From the NCBI GenBank assembly GCA_963771045.1, contig CAVYRW010000004.1, forward strand, positions 64,001 through 128,000: DNA of 64,000 nucleotides. The letters are read 5' to 3'. Positions within the stretch are counted from its first letter, which is position 1. Each line of letters starts with the position of its first letter. The stretch is from Waddliaceae bacterium (GTDB taxonomy: Bacteria; Chlamydiota; Chlamydiia; Chlamydiales; SLFE01). Position numbers and translations under genes: made by a program. Of the stretch, positions 4,696 to 14,155 are shown piece after piece. Under the pieces are notes generated by a model that saw only the letters and a list, made by a program, of their open reading frames with translations, ran no database searches and had not been told where the DNA came from.

Positions 4696-7600
4696 ATGAC
4701 TCAGCAAATCAGAGATTGTTACCAGTCGGATGTGAACGCAGTCAAGGCGCTGACAAAGACAAAAAAGCGAAAGCGTGAAGAAGAAAAACGAGTCGAAAAT
4801 CAGGCGCTGAGCAGGCTGCTTGGAGAACCCCCGCGGAAACGTCCCGCAATACTTCGTCGTCTCAATCCTGTTATCGAAATGCAAAGAGAAGACACATTTT
4901 CTTTAGGGCTGCAAGCGTCCATGAAATTTCAAAAACAGCTTTGTGAAGAGAATGGCTACTGCGTAGTCCATGCGGAGGAAAAAGAGGAAGACGTTTGCGG
5001 CGTGAGGCTAAAACGGCATCAATACCGCGAAATTGAAGACATTTGTCAAAAAAAGGATCCAAAAATCGGGTCTCAGCTTTTCGAAATCTATCAAATATTG
5101 GAAAGCCGGGGAGCGGCAAAAAAAAACGAAGGGCAGGCAATCTTAGAGTTTGCGAGGGAAATTATCAGAGAGGTTCCCGATCTTGAAGCCGAAGACATGG
5201 AAATCGATGAAAGCGAGGAGACTTTAGGCAAATATCGGGAAGCGGTGGAAAAATATTTGGATGTCCTTCCGATTGATCCTACAGAAGAGAATATCGATGA
5301 GTTTGCGATCGCAATGCAAAAAGCCGTCCTGCATGCAGCGAATGAAGACATGGAAATTTCCGACGATGATGAAGTTAATCCAATAGATCTGGCGCAGCAA
5401 AGGCTCGGGTACCTCCTTCTTGCTGCGCAGAATGATTTGTCTCTTTGCGCTCGGTCCCTCTATTCGCTTGACGGCTTATCGAGCCGCGTCGCCGAGATTC
5501 TTGAGGAGGCAGCCGCAAGGGTTGAGGATCACTCAGCCAGGCATAAAAGCGTTGCCATTCAGAGCAGCGATGAGGCGATGTTTCACAAAATGTCGTTGGA
5601 GTTGGCTGGTGTCCTTCTTCTTGATACAGGAAGCCTTAACTTCGGCGTACTCGAAGCGGCGGTCGAGATTCTGATTCCCGATTCGCTTAAAGAGACCGCC
5701 GCGATGGACAACCTTTGGATTGTCATGATTGAATTTGCGCAGAATCCGCTGCTCTGGCAGCAAATCGCAGAGGTCAGGCCACCTAAATCGAAAGATGTCC
5801 CTTCCGATGCAGCAATACGAACCTGCTTTAGTCTTGAAAATGATCAACCGATCACAAGACGGCACGCGCAGCTGTTTGTTCTTTCCGCTTTGCTCGGACA
5901 TCTGCGTCAGGCGAAGGCGGGCACCTGTTTTGCGACCGCCTGCCTGATTAAGACCCGTTTGTATCACCCTCATATGGTGATCGATGATCTGGCGCAGTTG
6001 ACAGAGAAGGGGTATATCAAACGAATGTTGTTTAAGGAAAGCCGCACATTTCCTTTTCAGGCAAGAGTGAGCAAGGAATATCTTGACCTCGAGCTTAAAA
6101 TCGACCGGGCGGGAAGAATTCTTTCCACCAAACGTTATGACCTGATACCCGACCGGGCTTCGGAGTGGCCGAGGCCGCAAAGAGGAATGCATCTCTATGA
6201 TTCTCCCGGCATCATTGCTGCGTGCAGGTCTATGGGATTAACTGATGCGAGGGAGGCGGTAAAATCTATTTTGGACAATCTGCCAGAGAAGTTTTCTGTC
6301 AATGACCTTTTGAAATTGTTAGCCCAGCATGCCTATAACAGGCAGGAGTCCGCTCCTTACCTCCTCCGTTCTCAAAAACAACTCACAGCCACGCAGTTTT
6401 TGCATAAGGCGCAGTTTGCTTTCGGCTGCCAAACAAATCACCCTCTGCACAGAGCCTTTGAGCAGGTCGCCACGACTATGGTCAATTATTTCGGCGCGCA
6501 ATATATGATGCCTGCCTGGGTATTTTGGACAATGAAGGAGGTTTTGGAAAAAGCCGACAGAGGATATTCCCGGGCTTTTCAAATGAAGTATAAAAAACTG
6601 ATGGAAGAAACGTTTTTGCCCATGATCACACGCATGCGTTATCTCTACAATCATAATTTGGATAAAGGTAAGGTATTGTTTGGCAACGGCAATTATGGTA
6701 TCAGAGAAAGCTATTTCTTTGGATATCAGCTGTGCGACTCAGGTCTTCCGAAGGATTTTAAATATTCAACAGATCTTTATAACCAATATAGTCACGAATG
6801 CAGCAGTATTTCACTGGAGCGTTTCAAAAAATTTACTCCTCCGACTCAATGGAAATTGGTAGACAGCGAGGATGAATTCAGAGGTTTTTTGAAAAACGTC
6901 ATTGCCGAAACCGTAGACTATCTTAAGAAAATCTCGCCGACTGCCAGCGAACGGCGCCAATGGGCTGCAGTCGGCTGTAAAATGCAACAAGATATTTCAG
7001 AACCTTCCTTTACAAAGAGAATTATTTTCCTACTACTTGGCAGGGGAAGCGATCAGAAAAAAGAGTATGACAAAAACCGATTTGGGATTCAATTTACTCC
7101 ATGGCAGTTTAGAATTGGCGGCGATTTTAATGAAGTTCTCAAGACGTACTTTGGGTTCGGGAAGAGTCCTGCCAAACTAAAAAAATACAACGGCACTCCT
7201 AAAGAAGTGCTGACAAAATGCATCAATTACATTAAAAGCCAGCCTTTGCAAATCAAGGAGACTTTTGACGATTCCCGCAGTCAAATTATTGTTGCGTCTC
7301 CGTGTCATGTTTTTCTTATGCGTCCTTTTGAGCCCACTTTTAAAGACGCATGGGAAAGCAAAGTTTCAACCAATGACTATATCTTAGAACATGTTGAAAA
7401 GCCGGGCCTTTCCATCGCGGGCTCCCGATTCAACCTTCGGCAAAGAAAAGAGATCCTTTCATTTGTCAAAAACAATATGTGGGCGACCAGGTATGAAGAA
7501 AAAGATGACTGGGTCCGGCAGCAATTGACAAAAACTTCGAAGGAGATGTTAGACCGCAAAATTGCGGCGTGTCCTCAGCTTATTGATTTAAGTGTCGAAG

Positions 7601-8301
7601 AATTTCGAAAAATGCTTGAAGAGATGGTTTTTTTGAGCCGGGCAGAAGATGTAAAAATTGGAGAAAGGAACAGAGTATGGGAGCAGCGTTTCAAAACAGT
7701 GCTGAATAATCGCATCAAACAGTTGATCCCTAATCAAACTGATTGGAGGAGGAAAATTCAAAGAGATATTGCCATGAAGCTGATTGACTTTGCCAGAAAC
7801 CGGCAAGACACGATCGTCCTTGTTCCGGACGCGGCAAGACGGTTTTTGGCTTACATGGAACGGGTCCCCCTCGGCATCAGTATCACTGACTTTCGCAAAA
7901 CGGTTGCAGACGCTGCCTACCGGGCACGTTGCGAGATCCTTTGCGGCCTTGACCCGGAGTGGAAGGGTAAGTTTTGCGAATATCTCGACACAAAATTGTT
8001 TTCAGTTTTATCCGAAGAGTCGAGAAATCGGCTTATTGAGAGCGGAATCGTCACACACGATACGAATTGGAAGGAAGAAATTCACAACATTCACTTCATT
8101 TTTCTGGTGAATCCGGGAACGGCGCAAATCGAGCTTGCCAGATTCAATCCGGATACGAAGGAAGTGACGTTTATGAGTCAGGACGACTGGTTTCCTCGAA
8201 AGTCAGGCGGCCATGGCTACTGGCTTTTTCCCGATAATTACCGTGTATGGCCCGGGCAGCCGCTATTCAATGTCAGAAAACATATCGAAGCGTTTATGTA
8301 G
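4696..8301 (+). CDS. Large hypothetical protein (1201 aa), possible papain-like cysteine protease fold
   Basis: Long ORF with GGAGG SD; LRQAKAGTCFATA, SPCHVF and HDTNW could form a Cys-His-Asp/Asn triad; basic then acidic N-terminus. Confidence 0.6.
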   Translation: MTQQIRDCYQSDVNAVKALTKTKKRKREEEKRVENQALSRLLGEPPRKRPAILRRLNPVIEMQREDTFSLGLQASMKFQKQLCEENGYCVVHAEEKEEDVCGVRLKRHQYREIEDICQKKDPKIGSQLFEIYQILESRGAAKKNEGQAILEFAREIIREVPDLEAEDMEIDESEETLGKYREAVEKYLDVLPIDPTEENIDEFAIAMQKAVLHAANEDMEISDDDEVNPIDLAQQRLGYLLLAAQNDLSLCARSLYSLDGLSSRVAEILEEAAARVEDHSARHKSVAIQSSDEAMFHKMSLELAGVLLLDTGSLNFGVLEAAVEILIPDSLKETAAMDNLWIVMIEFAQNPLLWQQIAEVRPPKSKDVPSDAAIRTCFSLENDQPITRRHAQLFVLSALLGHLRQAKAGTCFATACLIKTRLYHPHMVIDDLAQLTEKGYIKRMLFKESRTFPFQARVSKEYLDLELKIDRAGRILSTKRYDLIPDRASEWPRPQRGMHLYDSPGIIAACRSMGLTDAREAVKSILDNLPEKFSVNDLLKLLAQHAYNRQESAPYLLRSQKQLTATQFLHKAQFAFGCQTNHPLHRAFEQVATTMVNYFGAQYMMPAWVFWTMKEVLEKADRGYSRAFQMKYKKLMEETFLPMITRMRYLYNHNLDKGKVLFGNGNYGIRESYFFGYQLCDSGLPKDFKYSTDLYNQYSHECSSISLERFKKFTPPTQWKLVDSEDEFRGFLKNVIAETVDYLKKISPTASERRQWAAVGCKMQQDISEPSFTKRIIFLLLGRGSDQKKEYDKNRFGIQFTPWQFRIGGDFNEVLKTYFGFGKSPAKLKKYNGTPKEVLTKCINYIKSQPLQIKETFDDSRSQIIVASPCHVFLMRPFEPTFKDAWESKVSTNDYILEHVEKPGLSIAGSRFNLRQRKEILSFVKNNMWATRYEEKDDWVRQQLTKTSKEMLDRKIAACPQLIDLSVEEFRKMLEEMVFLSRAEDVKIGERNRVWEQRFKTVLNNRIKQLIPNQTDWRRKIQRDIAMKLIDFARNRQDTIVLVPDAARRFLAYMERVPLGISITDFRKTVADAAYRARCEILCGLDPEWKGKFCEYLDTKLFSVLSEESRNRLIESGIVTHDTNWKEEIHNIHFIFLVNPGTAQIELARFNPDTKEVTFMSQDDWFPRKSGGHGYWLFPDNYRVWPGQPLFNVRKHIEAFM

Positions 8302-8328: not shown

Positions 8329-9120
8329 CTAGAAAATCAGCATCCGTATGCCGACCACGAAAAGGAAGGTCGCAAAGATTTTTTTAAGGGCTTGAATCGG
8401 CAAAAGGTGGGCCATTTGTGCCGCTCCCCAGGAAAAAAATGGGCTTGAGAGGTTGATGCCCAGCACTGCCGGCCAGTAAATATAGCCGCTTGACCATTCG
8501 GGATCGCCGTCAAGGTAAGTCCCTGTAAAATAATAGGTTAAGGTTCCAGCTAACGAGACAATGAACGAAAGGGCAGCGCAAATTCCCACTGCCTGGTAGA
8601 TCGACAGCTTTCGATAGGAGATCAGAAACGGCACGCCCATAGAGCCGGCCCCGATGCCCAAAAGAGATGAAAGCGTACCGATTATGAGAGAAAATGCCCG
8701 TGTTATCTGATCGCTTGGTCTTTCCGCTCGGGATTTCCACTCGACGTTAAAAAATATTTGTAAAGAGATCAAGAGGGCGAAAATGCCCACGGAAATGCTC
8801 AGAACCTTCGATTGAAAAAATCCCGCGACAATGCCCCCTAAAATTGAGCCGACGACAATCCCCCCTGCCATCAGCTTGAGGACGGAGGTAACGACAACCC
8901 CGTTGCGGTAGTGGGCCCAAGTGGAAAAAAAGGTTGTCGTCACCATCGAGGCTAGCGAGGAGCCGATGGCAAAATGCATGAGGCTGCCGGAGGGAAATCC
9001 TATATAATAGAAGGTTGTGGAGAGAAGAGGGACGACGACGAGCCCCCCGCCAACTCCTAAAAGGCCAGCAAAAATGCCCGCCAGAGCCCCGATGCCGAGA
9101 TAAACCAGTAGTAAAATCAT
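8329..9120 (-). CDS. TauE/SafE (TSUP) family membrane transporter
   Basis: AGLLGVGGGLVVVP and SSLLGIGAGSMGVPFL repeats, about 8 TM segments. Confidence 0.9.
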   Translation of the reverse strand: MILLLVYLGIGALAGIFAGLLGVGGGLVVVPLLSTTFYYIGFPSGSLMHFAIGSSLASMVTTTFFSTWAHYRNGVVVTSVLKLMAGGIVVGSILGGIVAGFFQSKVLSISVGIFALLISLQIFFNVEWKSRAERPSDQITRAFSLIIGTLSSLLGIGAGSMGVPFLISYRKLSIYQAVGICAALSFIVSLAGTLTYYFTGTYLDGDPEWSSGYIYWPAVLGINLSSPFFSWGAAQMAHLLPIQALKKIFATFLFVVGIRMLIF

Positions 9121-9128
9121 CTTTTACA

Positions 9129-9157
9129 TTGAAAAATAGTGTTATAACTGTTAATAT
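9129..9157 (+). promoter_or_regulatory. Sigma70/sigma66-type promoter upstream of the brnQ leader
   Basis: TTGAAA-N17-TAATAT. Confidence 0.55.
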
Positions 9158-9202
9158 GAGGTTTATACGAATTAGTTGAACAATTCAAGGTGTGATTTAA
9201 CT

Positions 9203-9244
9203 ATGCCAACCCTTTTTACCAATCGATGTTGTTGTTGCCTCTAG
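9203..9244 (+). CDS. Putative attenuator leader peptide MPTLFTNRCCCCL
   Basis: ATG at 9203 preceded by AAGGTG; codons TGT TGT TGT TGC; TAG at 9242-9244; overlaps a hairpin that covers the brnQ SD. Confidence 0.55.
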   Translation: MPTLFTNRCCCCL

Positions 9245-9286
9245 TGGCAGGCTCATTTAAAACAACGACAAAAGAGGTTAAATCAC

Positions 9287-10399
9287 ATGTCAAAACCAAA
9301 AACATTTTCTCCCTTTATAATTGGACTTGCGTTCTTCTCGATGTTTTTCGGATCGGGAAATCTGGTCTTCCCTTTGTTTCTCGGTCAATATGCCGGGGAT
9401 AAATGGCCGCTTGTATCACTCGGATTTATTCTATCGGGTGTGATCGGCCCTCTTTTCGGCGTTGTGGCCATGGTCGCATATCAGGGGAATACGAATAAAT
9501 TCTTTTCTACAATCGGCAAACGGAATGCTTTGATTTTTGTTTCGATTTTGATGATGGTCTGGATCCCATTCGGCGCCGCTCCAAGGTGCATACGGGTGGC
9601 TTATGAGTCTTTTGCCGCGGCTTTTCCCATCCTGCCCCTTTGGCTTTTTGGTATTTTCTATTCGGCTTTAGTCTATTTTTCCATTGTCCGCAAAAACAGA
9701 ATGATCGAAGTTCTCGGCTATTTCCTCACTCCCGCCCTTTTGATTTGCCTGGCAGTTTTATGGATCTTTGGAATGATGACAGCAGAAGCGCCGGCTCCAA
9801 CAGACCGGACTGCTCTGAATGTCTTTCACATCGGCCTCGCTCACGGTTATGAGACTATGGATCTGATCGCCTCGTTTTTCTTTTCGATCTCGATTATCAG
9901 TGTGATACAGGCAGAAAAGAAATCTGTTGTCAAGACAATGAAAAAGGCTCTTCTTTCCGGTTTTATTGGGATGTCGGTTTTGGGCCTCGTTTATGCTGCT
10001 TTGATTTTTATGGCCTCTCGAAATGCCGCCCTTCTCGCGCCCCTTGCTAAAGACCAGCTTCTTCCCTTTATCTCCATGCAGTTTTTGGGCCCCAAACTCA
10101 GCCTGATTCCTGTCGGATTGGTGTTTCTTGCCTGCATCACGACATCTGTGGCCATGCTTTCGGTATTTGCCGACTTTATCAGGGAAAACTACTTTAAGCG
10201 AGATAAGACGAACCTTTCGGTTTTATCGGGAGTCGGGCTCACCTATTTTCTTTCTTTGATTACCTTTGACGGCCTGATGGTTGTCACAACGCCTATTCTG
10301 GAAATCAGCTGCCCTCTTCTCATTCTTTTGGGGATCTACAATCTGGCCAAAAAGTTCTTTTTCAGCCCCTCTCTTGAAGAGTCAGCATTCAGTGAATGA
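9287..10399 (+). CDS. brnQ: BrnQ/LIVCS family amino-acid transporter
   Basis: GLAFFSMFFGSGNLVFP, PFGAAPR, GYETMDLIAS and LACITTS motifs. Confidence 0.9.
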   Translation: MSKPKTFSPFIIGLAFFSMFFGSGNLVFPLFLGQYAGDKWPLVSLGFILSGVIGPLFGVVAMVAYQGNTNKFFSTIGKRNALIFVSILMMVWIPFGAAPRCIRVAYESFAAAFPILPLWLFGIFYSALVYFSIVRKNRMIEVLGYFLTPALLICLAVLWIFGMMTAEAPAPTDRTALNVFHIGLAHGYETMDLIASFFFSISIISVIQAEKKSVVKTMKKALLSGFIGMSVLGLVYAALIFMASRNAALLAPLAKDQLLPFISMQFLGPKLSLIPVGLVFLACITTSVAMLSVFADFIRENYFKRDKTNLSVLSGVGLTYFLSLITFDGLMVVTTPILEISCPLLILLGIYNLAKKFFFSPSLEESAFSE

Positions 10400-10401
10400 C
10401 T

Positions 10402-12005
10402 CTAATTAAAGTACAGGCGGCCCTCTTGATCAACATGAAGAAGGTTGGTGCGTTCCCCACCCGATAATGATCCCATACATTCTGTTTTCTCTGAGGATAT
10501 TTTCCAAATTTCATTGCTGATTTGATCCCAAGTCCATACTTCGCCTGCGGCAGTATTGATCACTGTCTTTGCATACAAAGGAGCTTTATGATTAACTGCC
10601 CGTTGTCGCATAAACCAGCAATTGAAGCGTAAGCAGGGCACTCTAGCAACACACTTTTTTCCGGTGCGGACACGACATGATCGTCAATTGTCATGGTTCT
10701 GATTGTGAGCAAATATGTATTTTCGTCGCTTGGATTGGGTTCAACACAATAAAGTTTTTCTTCTGAAGCATAAGCATTGTAACAACTAAACGTCGCAGAT
10801 TTACCCAAAGGGTTAATCACGAAAAGCTTAGGCGTTTGCCTAATAATCTCCAGAAATCCTATGTGTGTTGATAATGGCTCAAAAAAACCGCAGGGAGCAT
10901 CAATCTCAAAGGCAGGATTGAGTGTCGAGTCAGAGATTTTTCCTCCAATTATTTTTCTACCCTTGCAGGTCACTTGATAACCAAAGCCGTTTGAAGTGAA
11001 GTGAAGCCGATCCTGTTCTTTCTGGATTGCGTAAGGCAGTAGAATCGTATTTTTGACTTTGCCTAAAGCCAGGTCAATGATCGGAACGTTTTTCTCGCCT
11101 TCAAATAGAAAGGCCGCATTTTTCCTCATGCGGGTTAAATGGTATTCTGCAGGCCTCGTTTGCCAGATGCCGGAAGGGTTTGGATTGAGGCGTAAGTCTT
11201 CTGAAGGCTTAGATGTTACAGTAAGACCCCATTCCATTTTTTTCTGTTTGCATATCATAAGCTAAAAGAAGCGGCGGCATCTTTCGATAGCTGCAAACTC
11301 CAATCATAAGGTTGTTTTGCACAAAGGCGTTACAATACTGAGTAAATTTTAATCGCCTCGTAAATTCAGGGTCGGTATTTCTAGTATCTTCACGTCGAAA
11401 CGGCTCAAAAGGCCGGCCAAAAATTGTTTCAACAGCCTTTTGCTTAAAGTCAGGAAGCAGCTCTGTTAACGCATAGAAATGGCGGAGTGCCGCTCTTAAC
11501 GTAGCGGATTTTAACGCATGAGAGATATGATGCCCTATCTTTGCAGTTTGCGGATCGGAGCTGGATGCTAACGCATTAGCCAAAGCTGTTTTGCCGCTAG
11601 CGTTAAAACCTTCCAAGAGCCCTCTAATAAGAATATCCTTACGGGGCCAAGCTGCCCTTGTTGTCGATTGAAGTTGAGTCAATATAAATTTGATAAACTT
11701 TTCATGGCAATCATCTTCAAGAAAATCAACATAAATATTGATCAAAAGTTCAATGAATTTGTCAGGATATTTTAACGTAAAATCATCAGAGGAGATAAAC
11801 CCGGAAAGAACAGTTTTGACTGTTGTCTCATTAAATGTCTCTTTAGAGGGGATTTTGAAGCTGCATCCTGATGTTTGTTTGATCAGCCAGAGCATGTAAT
11901 ATCCTGCTTTGAGGTCGTCTCCATTCATGTAATGACGCTTGAGATTAAAGCAGGCTTCAAGCAATTCTGAGATATTTAAATGTTTAAAGGCTTTTGCAAA
12001 TTTCT
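10402..12005 (-). pseudogene. 3' part of a large hypothetical gene interrupted by IS66 and split into overlapping ORFs
   Basis: Same-strand overlapping ORFs 11209-11964, 10560-11258 and 10402-10641; the reading frame continues across the IS66 target site. Confidence 0.55.
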
Positions 12006-13637
12006 GTATCTGTTCACGGGGGTACCCCCCCAGGGGGAGTCGTAAACTTCTAACACGTTTTGTTAACCGAGAACTACCTCGTGAATTTGTGTCGTAGGAA
12101 ACCGTTTTCTATTTTGAAAATATCGGCGGCGCTTGTCCGCCATGAATGTATGCTTTAAAACATTCGGTAAAATAATCGAACGAATTTTGAGCACGTAACT
12201 TCAATGTCATACCAACTGTTAACACCCGTTCGACAAATCGCTCACCTTCTTCTGATTGTGAGCCAAAGCATAGCTTCCTCCAAATGACTCCGCCTCTAAG
12301 ACGTTGCTCGGCTGTATTGTTAGTCGGTTCGATATTCTCATGATAGGCAAATACCCATAACATCTCGAACCGTCCAAAAAAATCAGCGCAAGTCGACCTC
12401 GTTTTATTGCAACATTCTTTGTGAATTGCACCAGCTTTGAGGAGGACTTTCAAATCTTCTTTTGGGCCTATTTCGATCTTCTCGATCAGTTCGTCCCTTG
12501 CAATCTCACCGTTTTTGTAGCTATGCCAAAGATTGAATATCGACTTTTTACACTCTAACAACCGTTCCCCGATCCATTTATCAAATCCATCCCTGCCTGC
12601 AATCTTTTCAAAATCTCTATCTGCATGCGACCAGCAAAGTTGTCGCAGACCTTCATGCGAATTATAGGCATTATAGCGATCGGTTGTTAAACCCCCTTTG
12701 AAAGAACCAAAGATCTCGCGGAATGCCTTGTTGCTGCGTGAAGCCTTGATTGCGAAAAACACAGTTTCCTTGCCGCTTCCGACCCAAATCCATCTCTTTT
12801 CCGACATCGTTTTCCAACTCGTTTCATCGGCATAAATATGTTCTTCATTTAGAGTGTGTGTCCTAATTTCTTCGTATGGTGCTTTTAAAATCTGACTAGC
12901 TCGGACATGGATTTTACACACGCTGCCGGAACATATCCGAATATTGAGTCTGCCCATTAGAGCACAGACTTGACGTTTGGATAATCTAAACTCTCCTGAA
13001 AGAGAGGTGACGAAACCCATTAATCGGGGACCAAAACCAAATCGCGCTTCTTCGGGAATATCAGCCTTTACATGCTTACCACATCCGCTACACTGACAGG
13101 TGTGAATGTTGTATTGAGTAACTTCCGGAGGAGCGTCCGGTAATTCCACTACTTGTCGTACATCCGTTCTGACCACCTCCGAATTAAACGAGTGGGAGTG
13201 GCAGTTCGGACAAGTGTCCGGCTTTATGTTATGCAGCGACTGCACCTGATTAATTGGAACTAGTTGACGGGGGTGGCCCTTATGACCTTTTTGTGCTCCC
13301 TGTTTACGCCCCGTAGGTTCCTTTTTTCTTTGAGCTCTGAAGGGATCTTGCGAGGGGGGCTTAGAGCTATTCGAAGAGTTGGTGTTGAGTTTATCTTCGA
13401 GCTCCTTAACTTTTGCCTTGAGTGCCTGGTTTTCCTTTTTGAGGATTTCAATTTCCTCCAAGGCTTTATTCAGCTTTTCAAAGAGTTCTTCGTAGGTTGG
13501 CTTCATGTTATAAAGTGGTTTTGAACAACCAGAATAATAATAAAAATCTTATTTTATGCCGTATAAAATTTTTATTATTTTTGTGGGGTAGCGCGCGAGG
13601 CGGTAGCCGTTCCTAGAGTTACCCCGTGAACGGATAC
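12006..13637 (-). mobile_element. IS66 family element (single-ORF type), complete copy
   Basis: TIRs GTATCTGTTCACGGGG / GTATCCGTTCACGGGG; 8-bp target duplication AAATTTCT at 11998-12005 and 13638-13645. Confidence 0.95.
12109..13506 (-). CDS. IS66 family transposase
   Basis: Leucine zipper, NSSKPPSQD, CPNC zinc finger, ADET, TDRY, QLCWSH, TNNTAEQRLR. Confidence 0.95.
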   Translation of the reverse strand: MKPTYEELFEKLNKALEEIEILKKENQALKAKVKELEDKLNTNSSNSSKPPSQDPFRAQRKKEPTGRKQGAQKGHKGHPRQLVPINQVQSLHNIKPDTCPNCHSHSFNSEVVRTDVRQVVELPDAPPEVTQYNIHTCQCSGCGKHVKADIPEEARFGFGPRLMGFVTSLSGEFRLSKRQVCALMGRLNIRICSGSVCKIHVRASQILKAPYEEIRTHTLNEEHIYADETSWKTMSEKRWIWVGSGKETVFFAIKASRSNKAFREIFGSFKGGLTTDRYNAYNSHEGLRQLCWSHADRDFEKIAGRDGFDKWIGERLLECKKSIFNLWHSYKNGEIARDELIEKIEIGPKEDLKVLLKAGAIHKECCNKTRSTCADFFGRFEMLWVFAYHENIEPTNNTAEQRLRGGVIWRKLCFGSQSEEGERFVERVLTVGMTLKLRAQNSFDYFTECFKAYIHGGQAPPIFSK

Positions 13638-14089
13638 AAATTTCTTCCGTAGTTCATCTTCTGAAAACCAAGTTGAATGCTCTTCAGTTATCAGTTGTAC
13701 GATGATGGAATTGTTTTTTTAAAAGTATTTTCAAGAGCTTTTTTACAAGCAGCCTGATCAAGCTTCGAAAAGGCGATTCCGCTTTGGTAAAATTTCCAAA
13801 AATCATATGAATGTTTTTTGACAAACTCTTTTACTTTCATTTGGATCTCATCTACGGATTCATTTTTTTGTGCGATTGATTTTTCGGATAGTTTTGATCT
13901 GTTTGCCGGAGCAGATAAAATCGATGAACCAGTTATTTGTGTCAGTAACTCTAGTTTAACCTCTAACTCTTTTTCTGCTGATGATGGAAATTTTTGGCCG
14001 AAATCTTGAGCTAATACTTCTTTAATCAGAACTAAATAACTGTTTATAATATGGCCTTCCAGAAAAATAGTTAAGAGACGGTATATCAT
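13638..14089 (-). pseudogene. 5' part of the IS66-interrupted hypothetical gene
   Basis: ORF 13691-14089 shifts at an A7 run into ...IIVQLITEEHSTWFSEDELRKKF, which joins AKAFKHLNISELLEAC after removing the IS. Confidence 0.55.
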
Positions 14090-14155
14090 GATTTGTTATT
14101 AAAGGATAGGACAAGTCAACTGACGCTGTCAGCCGTGATTGGCAAAGGGAATCTT

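Follow-up and report, generated by a model that had tools for sequence, protein, structure and literature searches.

A candidate cysteine-sensing translational attenuator upstream of brnQ in a chlamydial genome

The tauE–brnQ intergenic region

The window analyzed here, a 64,000-nt stretch from the genome of a Waddliaceae bacterium, an environmental chlamydia (G000; 2.57 Mb, 90.6% complete), contains a leader element between two divergent genes: tauE on the minus strand (8329–9120), encoding a TauE/SafE-family membrane protein (PF01925, E 9.9e-45), and brnQ on the plus strand (9287–10399), encoding a 370-aa BrnQ/LIVCS-family transporter (PF05525, E 1.6e-53). The preliminary description of this DNA had taken the divergent TauE/SafE gene as a fit to cysteine sensing; tauE is indeed a conserved divergent neighbor of brnQ in all six family loci, but it cannot be controlled by the brnQ leader because it is encoded on the other strand. 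Farther out, a 1201-aa ORF without a Pfam match (4696–8301) ends just short of the tauE 3′ end, and the interval between brnQ and rsgA (10402–14100) holds two ORFs without a Pfam match and an IS66 transposase (12109–13506). In the relatives G001 and G004, rsgA directly follows brnQ, and the block was therefore likely inserted later.

The leader starts with a sigma70-type promoter (9129–9157; −35 TTGAAA at 9129–9134, a 17-nt spacer and −10 TAATAT at 9152–9157), from which transcription is predicted to begin near 9164; taken alone, this match is at chance level (1 found versus 1.3 expected). About 39 nt after the predicted transcript start lies a 13-codon upstream ORF (uORF) encoding MPTLFTNRCCCCL* (9203–9244), preceded by its own Shine-Dalgarno (SD)-like site, AAGGTG (9187–9192), identified by its duplex with the anti-SD heptamer, so the uORF would not be leaderless. 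Four Cys codons, the putative control codons, occupy 9227–9238, and the brnQ SD, GAGG, lies at 9274–9277. All of these parts had been noted in the preliminary description and hold up, as does the absence of a U-tract terminator: the three terminator-like sites detected all lie inside tauE or brnQ, with none between the uORF and the brnQ start, and the leader lacks the intrinsic terminator hairpin plus U-tract of classical trp/his/thr-type transcription attenuators. Rfam covariance models returned only two matches (E 6.6 and 9.9), far under gathering scores, and did not place the leader among T-boxes or other cis-regulatory RNAs of Rfam. Two observations concern the tauE side of the region. Conserved TCAAGG and AGGTTTA words within 9129–9192 could form a minus-strand tauE promoter overlapping that of brnQ as well as the uORF SD; a score of at least 8/12 is reached only in G005 and the metagenome contig L044, not in G000. 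At locus L006 of G004, a G/C-rich minus-strand hairpin about 235–260 nt upstream of brnQ, directly before the tauE start, would cover the tauE SD.

The UG-rich run that encodes Cys can also be read as Val or Leu, and all three frames were therefore tested. It had been suspected that the T5 run within the uORF (9213–9217) was a homopolymer error and that removal of one T would give a Leu/Ile/Val-rich leader. A 151-nt contig from run X2, possibly of the same source as the assembly, corresponds to 9181–9331, and so spans the doubtful positions 9210–9217, with zero differences or gaps; the contig from run X3, which shares G001 substitutions and is counted together with G001, has no indel at T5; and G001 itself carries an identical T5 and an identical uORF frame. 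The T5 run is thus genuine, the homopolymer-error reading is ruled out, and the frameshifted branched-chain reading fails with it. None of the six family leaders offers a start codon for the Val frame. The Leu frame is opened by an internal AUG in five of six, yet its starts have no SD in any (duplex +0.4 to +3.5 kcal/mol), and in G000 it continues unstopped into brnQ. Val- and Leu-frame leaders were rejected on these grounds, leaving Cys (start in 6/6, with an SD in 5/6) as the sole frame with an SD-backed start.

The family consists of six genomes, of which five contributed leaders; with L044, this gives six distinct leaders, all kin and two nearly identical, from loci whose BrnQ proteins are 62%–100% identical. 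The sixth genome, G002 (82% complete), was left out, its brnQ lying at a contig edge without upstream DNA and its tauE not being found. The comparison of brnQ upstream regions showed a Cys-run uORF in all six leaders, starting 82–92 nt upstream of brnQ, with the first Cys at codon 7–10 and the run within codons 7–13, and a TTGnnn-17-TAnnnT promoter at the equivalent place in each. The peptides (MPTLFTNRCCCCL in G000, MPNLFTNRCCCCL in G001, MNKSCLNNRCCC in G005, VKSLPIKRCCCPVCRQP with a GTG start in G003, MKSCLIKRCCWVCCQR in L044 and MFIKIYCCCCTCTH in G004) are 12–17 aa long and vary freely outside Cys, except for an Arg preceding the run in five of six. The uORF SD duplex with the anti-SD heptamer is −3.8 to −3.9 kcal/mol in five leaders and 0.0 in G004. 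In short, the six leaders share a brief uORF that has a usable start and carries consecutive putative control codons.

Across chlamydial brnQ upstream regions, 8 of 104 carry a uORF with CC and at least three Cys, seven belonging to this clade and one (L094) being unrelated. These leader counts leave out about 12 further homologues (48%–87% identity, P0002–P0019), four loci duplicating sequences already included, two partial loci lacking upstream DNA, a match in G039 and a broken G022 copy; order- and phylum-level searches for further orthologues added only G060 above E 1e-92 (G096 unscored). Within G000, 2602 candidate uORFs were found in 1351 upstream regions; a CCC run occurs in three, and the brnQ uORF is the only one of these with an SD match. 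We found no genome-wide Cys ribulon in G000, with no Cys uORF upstream of its CBS-like or lyase-like genes. On sequence grounds, rarity together with conservation raises the candidate element above chance.

Predicted pairing and ribosome occupancy of the leader

The leader is predicted to fold as one long hairpin, with the uORF inside its 5′ arm. Folding of 9163–9300 is modest (z −1.92; 7/200 shuffles), and z-scores of the six leaders run from −2.7 to −3.9. In G000, a 12-bp outer helix, P1, joins 9190–9201, the spacer between the uORF SD and start, with 9277–9288 in both the minimum free energy (MFE) and centroid structures, with pair probabilities of 0.92–1.00 over brnQ offsets +1 to −9. Inside it, an anti-SD core in uORF codons 3–5 (9211–9217) pairs with 9271–9277 in the MFE structure, and the Cys codons (9227–9236) provide the 5′ strand of an inner helix, P2, whose 3′ strand is 9261–9270. 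The brnQ ribosome-binding region, from the SD to the AUG (9271–9288), would thereby serve as 3′ strand of both P1 and the anti-SD pairing. The complementarity of the Cys-codon strand had been noted before and is present in G000; the SD-core pairing, also proposed earlier, appears in the MFE structure, but its probability is just 0.33–0.49 in G000 (0.76–0.81 in G001).

In all six leaders, the uORF start zone is predicted to form a helix of changing sequence with the brnQ SD-to-AUG region. Its duplex energy is −13.4 to −19.3 kcal/mol, matched by 0–4 of 2000 shuffles for each leader in windows chosen after the helix had been seen; against an unselected background of 787 G000 genes, the six duplexes rank at 0.3, 1.8, 4.8, 5.1, 12.6 and 15%, that of G000 being rank 40. 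Elsewhere among brnQ regions, 1 of 59 has a duplex stronger than that of G000. G000 and G005 keep the same register with two double-sided pair changes (offsets −6 and −7), and in G003 the helix is rebuilt across the AUG. Compensatory change is visible in P1 between G000 and G005, but RNAalifold on the MAFFT alignment yields a weak consensus (−0.58 kcal/mol) with a two-sided change in only 1 of 12 pairs, because the helix shifts register. The Cys-codon stem P2 is strong in G000, G001 and G004, where alone it beats shuffles (31–105/2000), weak in G005 and L044 and absent from G003, and it fails against shuffles in these last three (286–1339/2000). Conservation thus extends to the uORF in all six leaders but not to the Cys-codon stem, and by these models the lock that is conserved is the pairing of the uORF start zone with the brnQ RBS. 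The idea of a translational attenuator read in the cysteine frame is supported, with a duplex predicted to sequester the downstream SD and start in 6/6; what the preliminary description misplaced was the lock, having overlooked P1.

The part assigned to the stalled ribosome also needs revision. In an equilibrium folding model, opening the brnQ RBS without a ribosome costs 7.7–16.3 kcal/mol across the six leaders. A ribosome on the control codons was expected to free the brnQ SD, but in G000 the modeled RBS stays closed, at 9.2–10.5 kcal/mol with one ribosome on the Cys codons versus 10.1 kcal/mol without. With the ribosome on the first Cys, the cost remains 9–12 kcal/mol in G000 and G001 whatever the footprint, drops to 8–9 kcal/mol in G005 and falls below 6 kcal/mol in G003, L044 and G004 with wide footprints only; these single-ribosome values are rough, as the model lets a small helix close round the footprint in G000 and G001, which is sterically unlikely. 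When the uORF start is also occupied, the cost is 0.9–4.6 kcal/mol in all six. Opening of the uORF RBS itself costs 4–6 kcal/mol on nascent RNA versus 9–17 kcal/mol on the full leader. Since a single ribosome fails to open the RBS in G000 and G001, a queue step would be needed. Queued ribosomes are spaced about 25–30 nt apart; from a P-site at the first three Cys codons, the start codon is 21–30 nt away in five leaders and 15–21 nt away in G004, where the spacing is short for a queue and the uORF has no scorable SD.

Taken together, these models suggest how the leader might work. Ribosomes would load on the uORF before transcription of the leader is complete. With ample cysteine, they would run off, and the leader would zip into its long hairpin, shutting both RBSs and leaving the mRNA silent. 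With scarce cysteine, a first ribosome would wait on the Cys run and block the inner stem, and a second, queued on the uORF start, would occupy the 5′ strand of the lock and free the brnQ RBS. In a kinetic variant, the paused ribosome would merely delay closure long enough for brnQ loading, with the direction of control unchanged. That the Cys codons act as the sensor seems to us very probable from the comparative data, and we regard as probable the reading as a whole, a conserved cysteine-sensing translational attenuator that would turn brnQ on under cysteine shortage; we give the queue step, which comes from the folding models, slightly less than an even chance of operating.

The transporter and its possible cargo

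BrnQ scores 183 bits against TIGR00796, under the 243-bit equivalog cut-off, and its structural model (pLDDT 93.8) gives Foldseek matches to LeuT, ApcT, AdiC and Nramp; the PF05525 domain and the predicted LeuT-type fold place it in the LIVCS/BrnQ family, for which no solved BrnQ structure was found by sequence or profile search. In both of our midpoint-rooted trees, an IQ-TREE quick tree and a FastTree tree that left out two proteins shorter than 300 aa, the Cys-leader proteins form a tight group within a larger, fully supported group. Upstream regions of this larger group carry a uORF with at least three Thr per eight residues in 9 of 33 cases and an Ile/Val run in 1 of 33, versus 3 of 59 and 10 of 59 in the remaining clades, counts for which the thresholds were set after inspection, kin are not independent and most regions show no leader. 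G045, whose BrnQ belongs to the well-supported Cys group, lacks a Cys leader. Residues W92, I93 and S287 are common to the Cys and Thr groups and are mostly Ile/Leu/Met, Gly and Ala elsewhere, setting BrnQ apart from the clades with Ile/Val leaders. Two further residues occur in the Cys group alone, A97 (7/7 versus Ser in 32/34) and C342 (7/7 versus Tyr in 34/34). The group-specific residues fall in helices that we count as TM3, TM8 and TM10 of the predicted model; in LeuT-fold carriers, TM3, TM8 and TM10 line the substrate site.

Other brnQ copies have leaders of their own. Those on the family's other copies in G003, G005 and G004 are Ile/Val-rich. The second brnQ of G000 (L032, G000:C4:874857–876032, minus strand; compare L033) has a 27-codon uORF that resembles G001 in its last ten codons but not in its first half; leaders of the orthologues in G003 and G005 are Ile/Val/Leu-rich. 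G060, from another family, encodes a BrnQ orthologue (52%–55% identical) with a Cys-rich uORF laid out like those of its Val-, Thr- and Ile-leader paralogs, so that four brnQ copies have leaders rich in Val, Thr, Ile and Cys, in each of which the control codons continue into a short hairpin; the G060 Cys leader also contains an overlapping, competing Thr-containing frame and has no RBS lock (−8.4 kcal/mol). Single-amino-acid leaders of family f17 (L065, L068, L072 and L045 in G060; L069, L071 and L008 in G021; L066 and L064 in G087), each rich in Val, Thr, Ile or Cys, finish with a short hairpin that usually covers the stop, plus a C/U-rich tract, without a terminator, possibly reflecting Rho-type attenuation. 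Ile- or Thr/Ala-rich leaders with a shared RCGP ending precede distant brnQ copies (L028, L090, L114, L115, L118 and L119), that of L028 being followed by a hairpin and U-tract in the style of a classical transcription attenuator. A uORF 141–39 nt upstream of G000:C4:1688082 has an SD and four His among five codons and is a candidate histidine leader; the gene that follows encodes a 450-aa membrane protein, presumably akin to sodium:solute symporters.

The gene content of G000 bears on the cargo. Neither G000 nor five relatives gave a match for cysE, and G000 gave none for PAPS reductase, suggesting that sulfur amino acids likely come from outside the cell. CBS-like and cystathionine-lyase-like genes are present in G000, both under NCBIfam cut-offs, and a cysteine precursor could therefore be what is imported. 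Two SDF-family carriers in G000 score best as GltP/DctA types, under cut-offs. Several PLP-enzyme genes at G000:C4:1878850–1884242 are broken up over different frames or contain internal stop codons and may be pseudogenes or assembly errors.

Nested among chlamydial BrnQs whose leaders, in the cases that show one, are mostly Thr-rich, this BrnQ is likely a cysteine-regulated, possibly cysteine-carrying paralog. Rather than Leu/Ile/Val, it would likely carry cysteine or some related small amino acid, sulfur-containing or polar, and we lean slightly toward cysteine as the main cargo. More tentatively, and in our estimate with rather less than an even chance of being right, a dedicated cysteine importer may have arisen from a threonine-type BrnQ, its double-RBS lock held open by a queued ribosome, with leaders labeling chlamydial BrnQs as Ile, Val, Thr or Cys carriers. 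E. coli BrnQ is described as importing cysteine weakly, as a minor route, in an organism without a high-affinity assimilatory cysteine importer (PMC7373191), and LIVCS carriers are argued to be multi-specific despite single-amino-acid control (PMC2494555). The leader offers a direct substrate prediction for a BrnQ, and a cysteine-tuned BrnQ, if true, would be a useful reference; chlamydial brnQ leaders may more generally provide a route to assigning substrates in a family annotated throughout as branched-chain carriers.

Alternative explanations and known leader systems

Cysteine might be sensed with a transcript-level output, through Rho-dependent termination or decay of untranslated mRNA, the hairpin being secondary. 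This explanation, which we consider unlikely, fits the lack of an intrinsic terminator at the brnQ leader, the modeled single stalled ribosome that leaves P1 closed, and the f17 brnQ leaders, including that of the G060 Cys orthologue, with their hairpin and C/U-rich tract but no RBS lock; Rho has also been proposed for actinobacterial Cys leaders (PMC1262725). It sits poorly with the spacer after the uORF stop, here just 31–49 nt and A-rich, and with complementarity to the brnQ SD-AUG region that is kept despite sequence change. Polarity could also arise as a consequence of the lock.

Decidedly improbable, in our judgment, is an arrangement with no tRNA-Cys sensing, in which the hairpin acts as a constant brake on synthesis of a membrane protein, or the uORF yields a small Cys-rich peptide with a metal or redox role. 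P1 by itself would reduce brnQ translation, pairing could account for the invariance of the TGTTGTTG columns, and the G003 and L044 peptides have spaced Cys. Yet G003 keeps its Cys run though the Cys-codon stem is absent, peptide length and the other residues vary, and brnQ paralog leaders are rich in other single amino acids, as control codons predict. A leader tuned to branched-chain amino acids, read either as a frameshifted Leu/Ile/Val peptide or from the internal Leu-frame AUG, would suit BrnQ as a branched-chain carrier by family and a UG-rich run that reads as Leu or Val in other frames; with T5 confirmed, starts or SDs missing from those frames in all six leaders, the Leu frame unstopped into brnQ in G000 and Ile/Val-rich leaders sitting on other brnQ copies in G003, G005 and G004, we find it highly improbable.

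A cysteine-sensing translational attenuator on brnQ can be compared with several known systems. A chlamydial sample has been called too small to judge (PMC4833913). Neither a Cys leader on brnQ nor one in chlamydiae turned up in a literature covered mostly at the level of titles and abstract openings, with few subscription journals. Firmicutes LIVCS/BrnQ paralogs are likewise under different signals (Ile, Val and Thr), but there the control is a tRNA-binding T-box riboswitch rather than codons read by a ribosome, and Cys-specific control is absent from the passages covered (PMC2494555). In Actinobacteria, predicted Cys leaders and the LEU element also combine a control-codon uORF with the lack of a terminator, and LEU sequesters an SD; these leaders lie ahead of biosynthesis genes, the Cys ones yielded no conserved hairpin, and LEU, unlike the brnQ leader, forms its duplex between Leu codons and SD and includes a pseudoknot (PMC1262725). 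In the ermC and cat attenuators, as summarized in 10.1101/834739, a stalled leader ribosome frees a sequestered SD, as proposed here, but the stall depends on a drug and the nascent peptide, whereas the brnQ uORF peptide is unconserved beyond Cys.

The mycobacterial polycysteine attenuators, exemplified by Ms5788A of the “Cys ribulon,” resemble the brnQ leader in having a run of Cys codons in a short upstream ORF and no intrinsic terminator, and in a downstream SD held, here by prediction, in a duplex; ribosome pausing on the Cys codons relieves that duplex in mycobacteria and is proposed to do so here (10.1101/834739). Ms5788A is leaderless, whereas the brnQ uORF is leadered with its own SD, given the predicted transcript start; and its Cys codons pair with the SD region, whereas the conserved duplex here is predicted to join two ribosome-binding zones. 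Mycobacterial Cys sORFs lie at several loci (10.1101/834739), compared with the one SD-backed CCC uORF among 1351 upstream regions in G000, and the brnQ leader differs from the mycobacterial ribulon in its target, a transporter, and in its host, a member of the Chlamydiota. If the reading proposed here holds, Cys-codon attenuation, which that work indicates has so far been tested in mycobacteria, would extend to the Chlamydiota, there acting on a transporter gene through an RNA of different layout.
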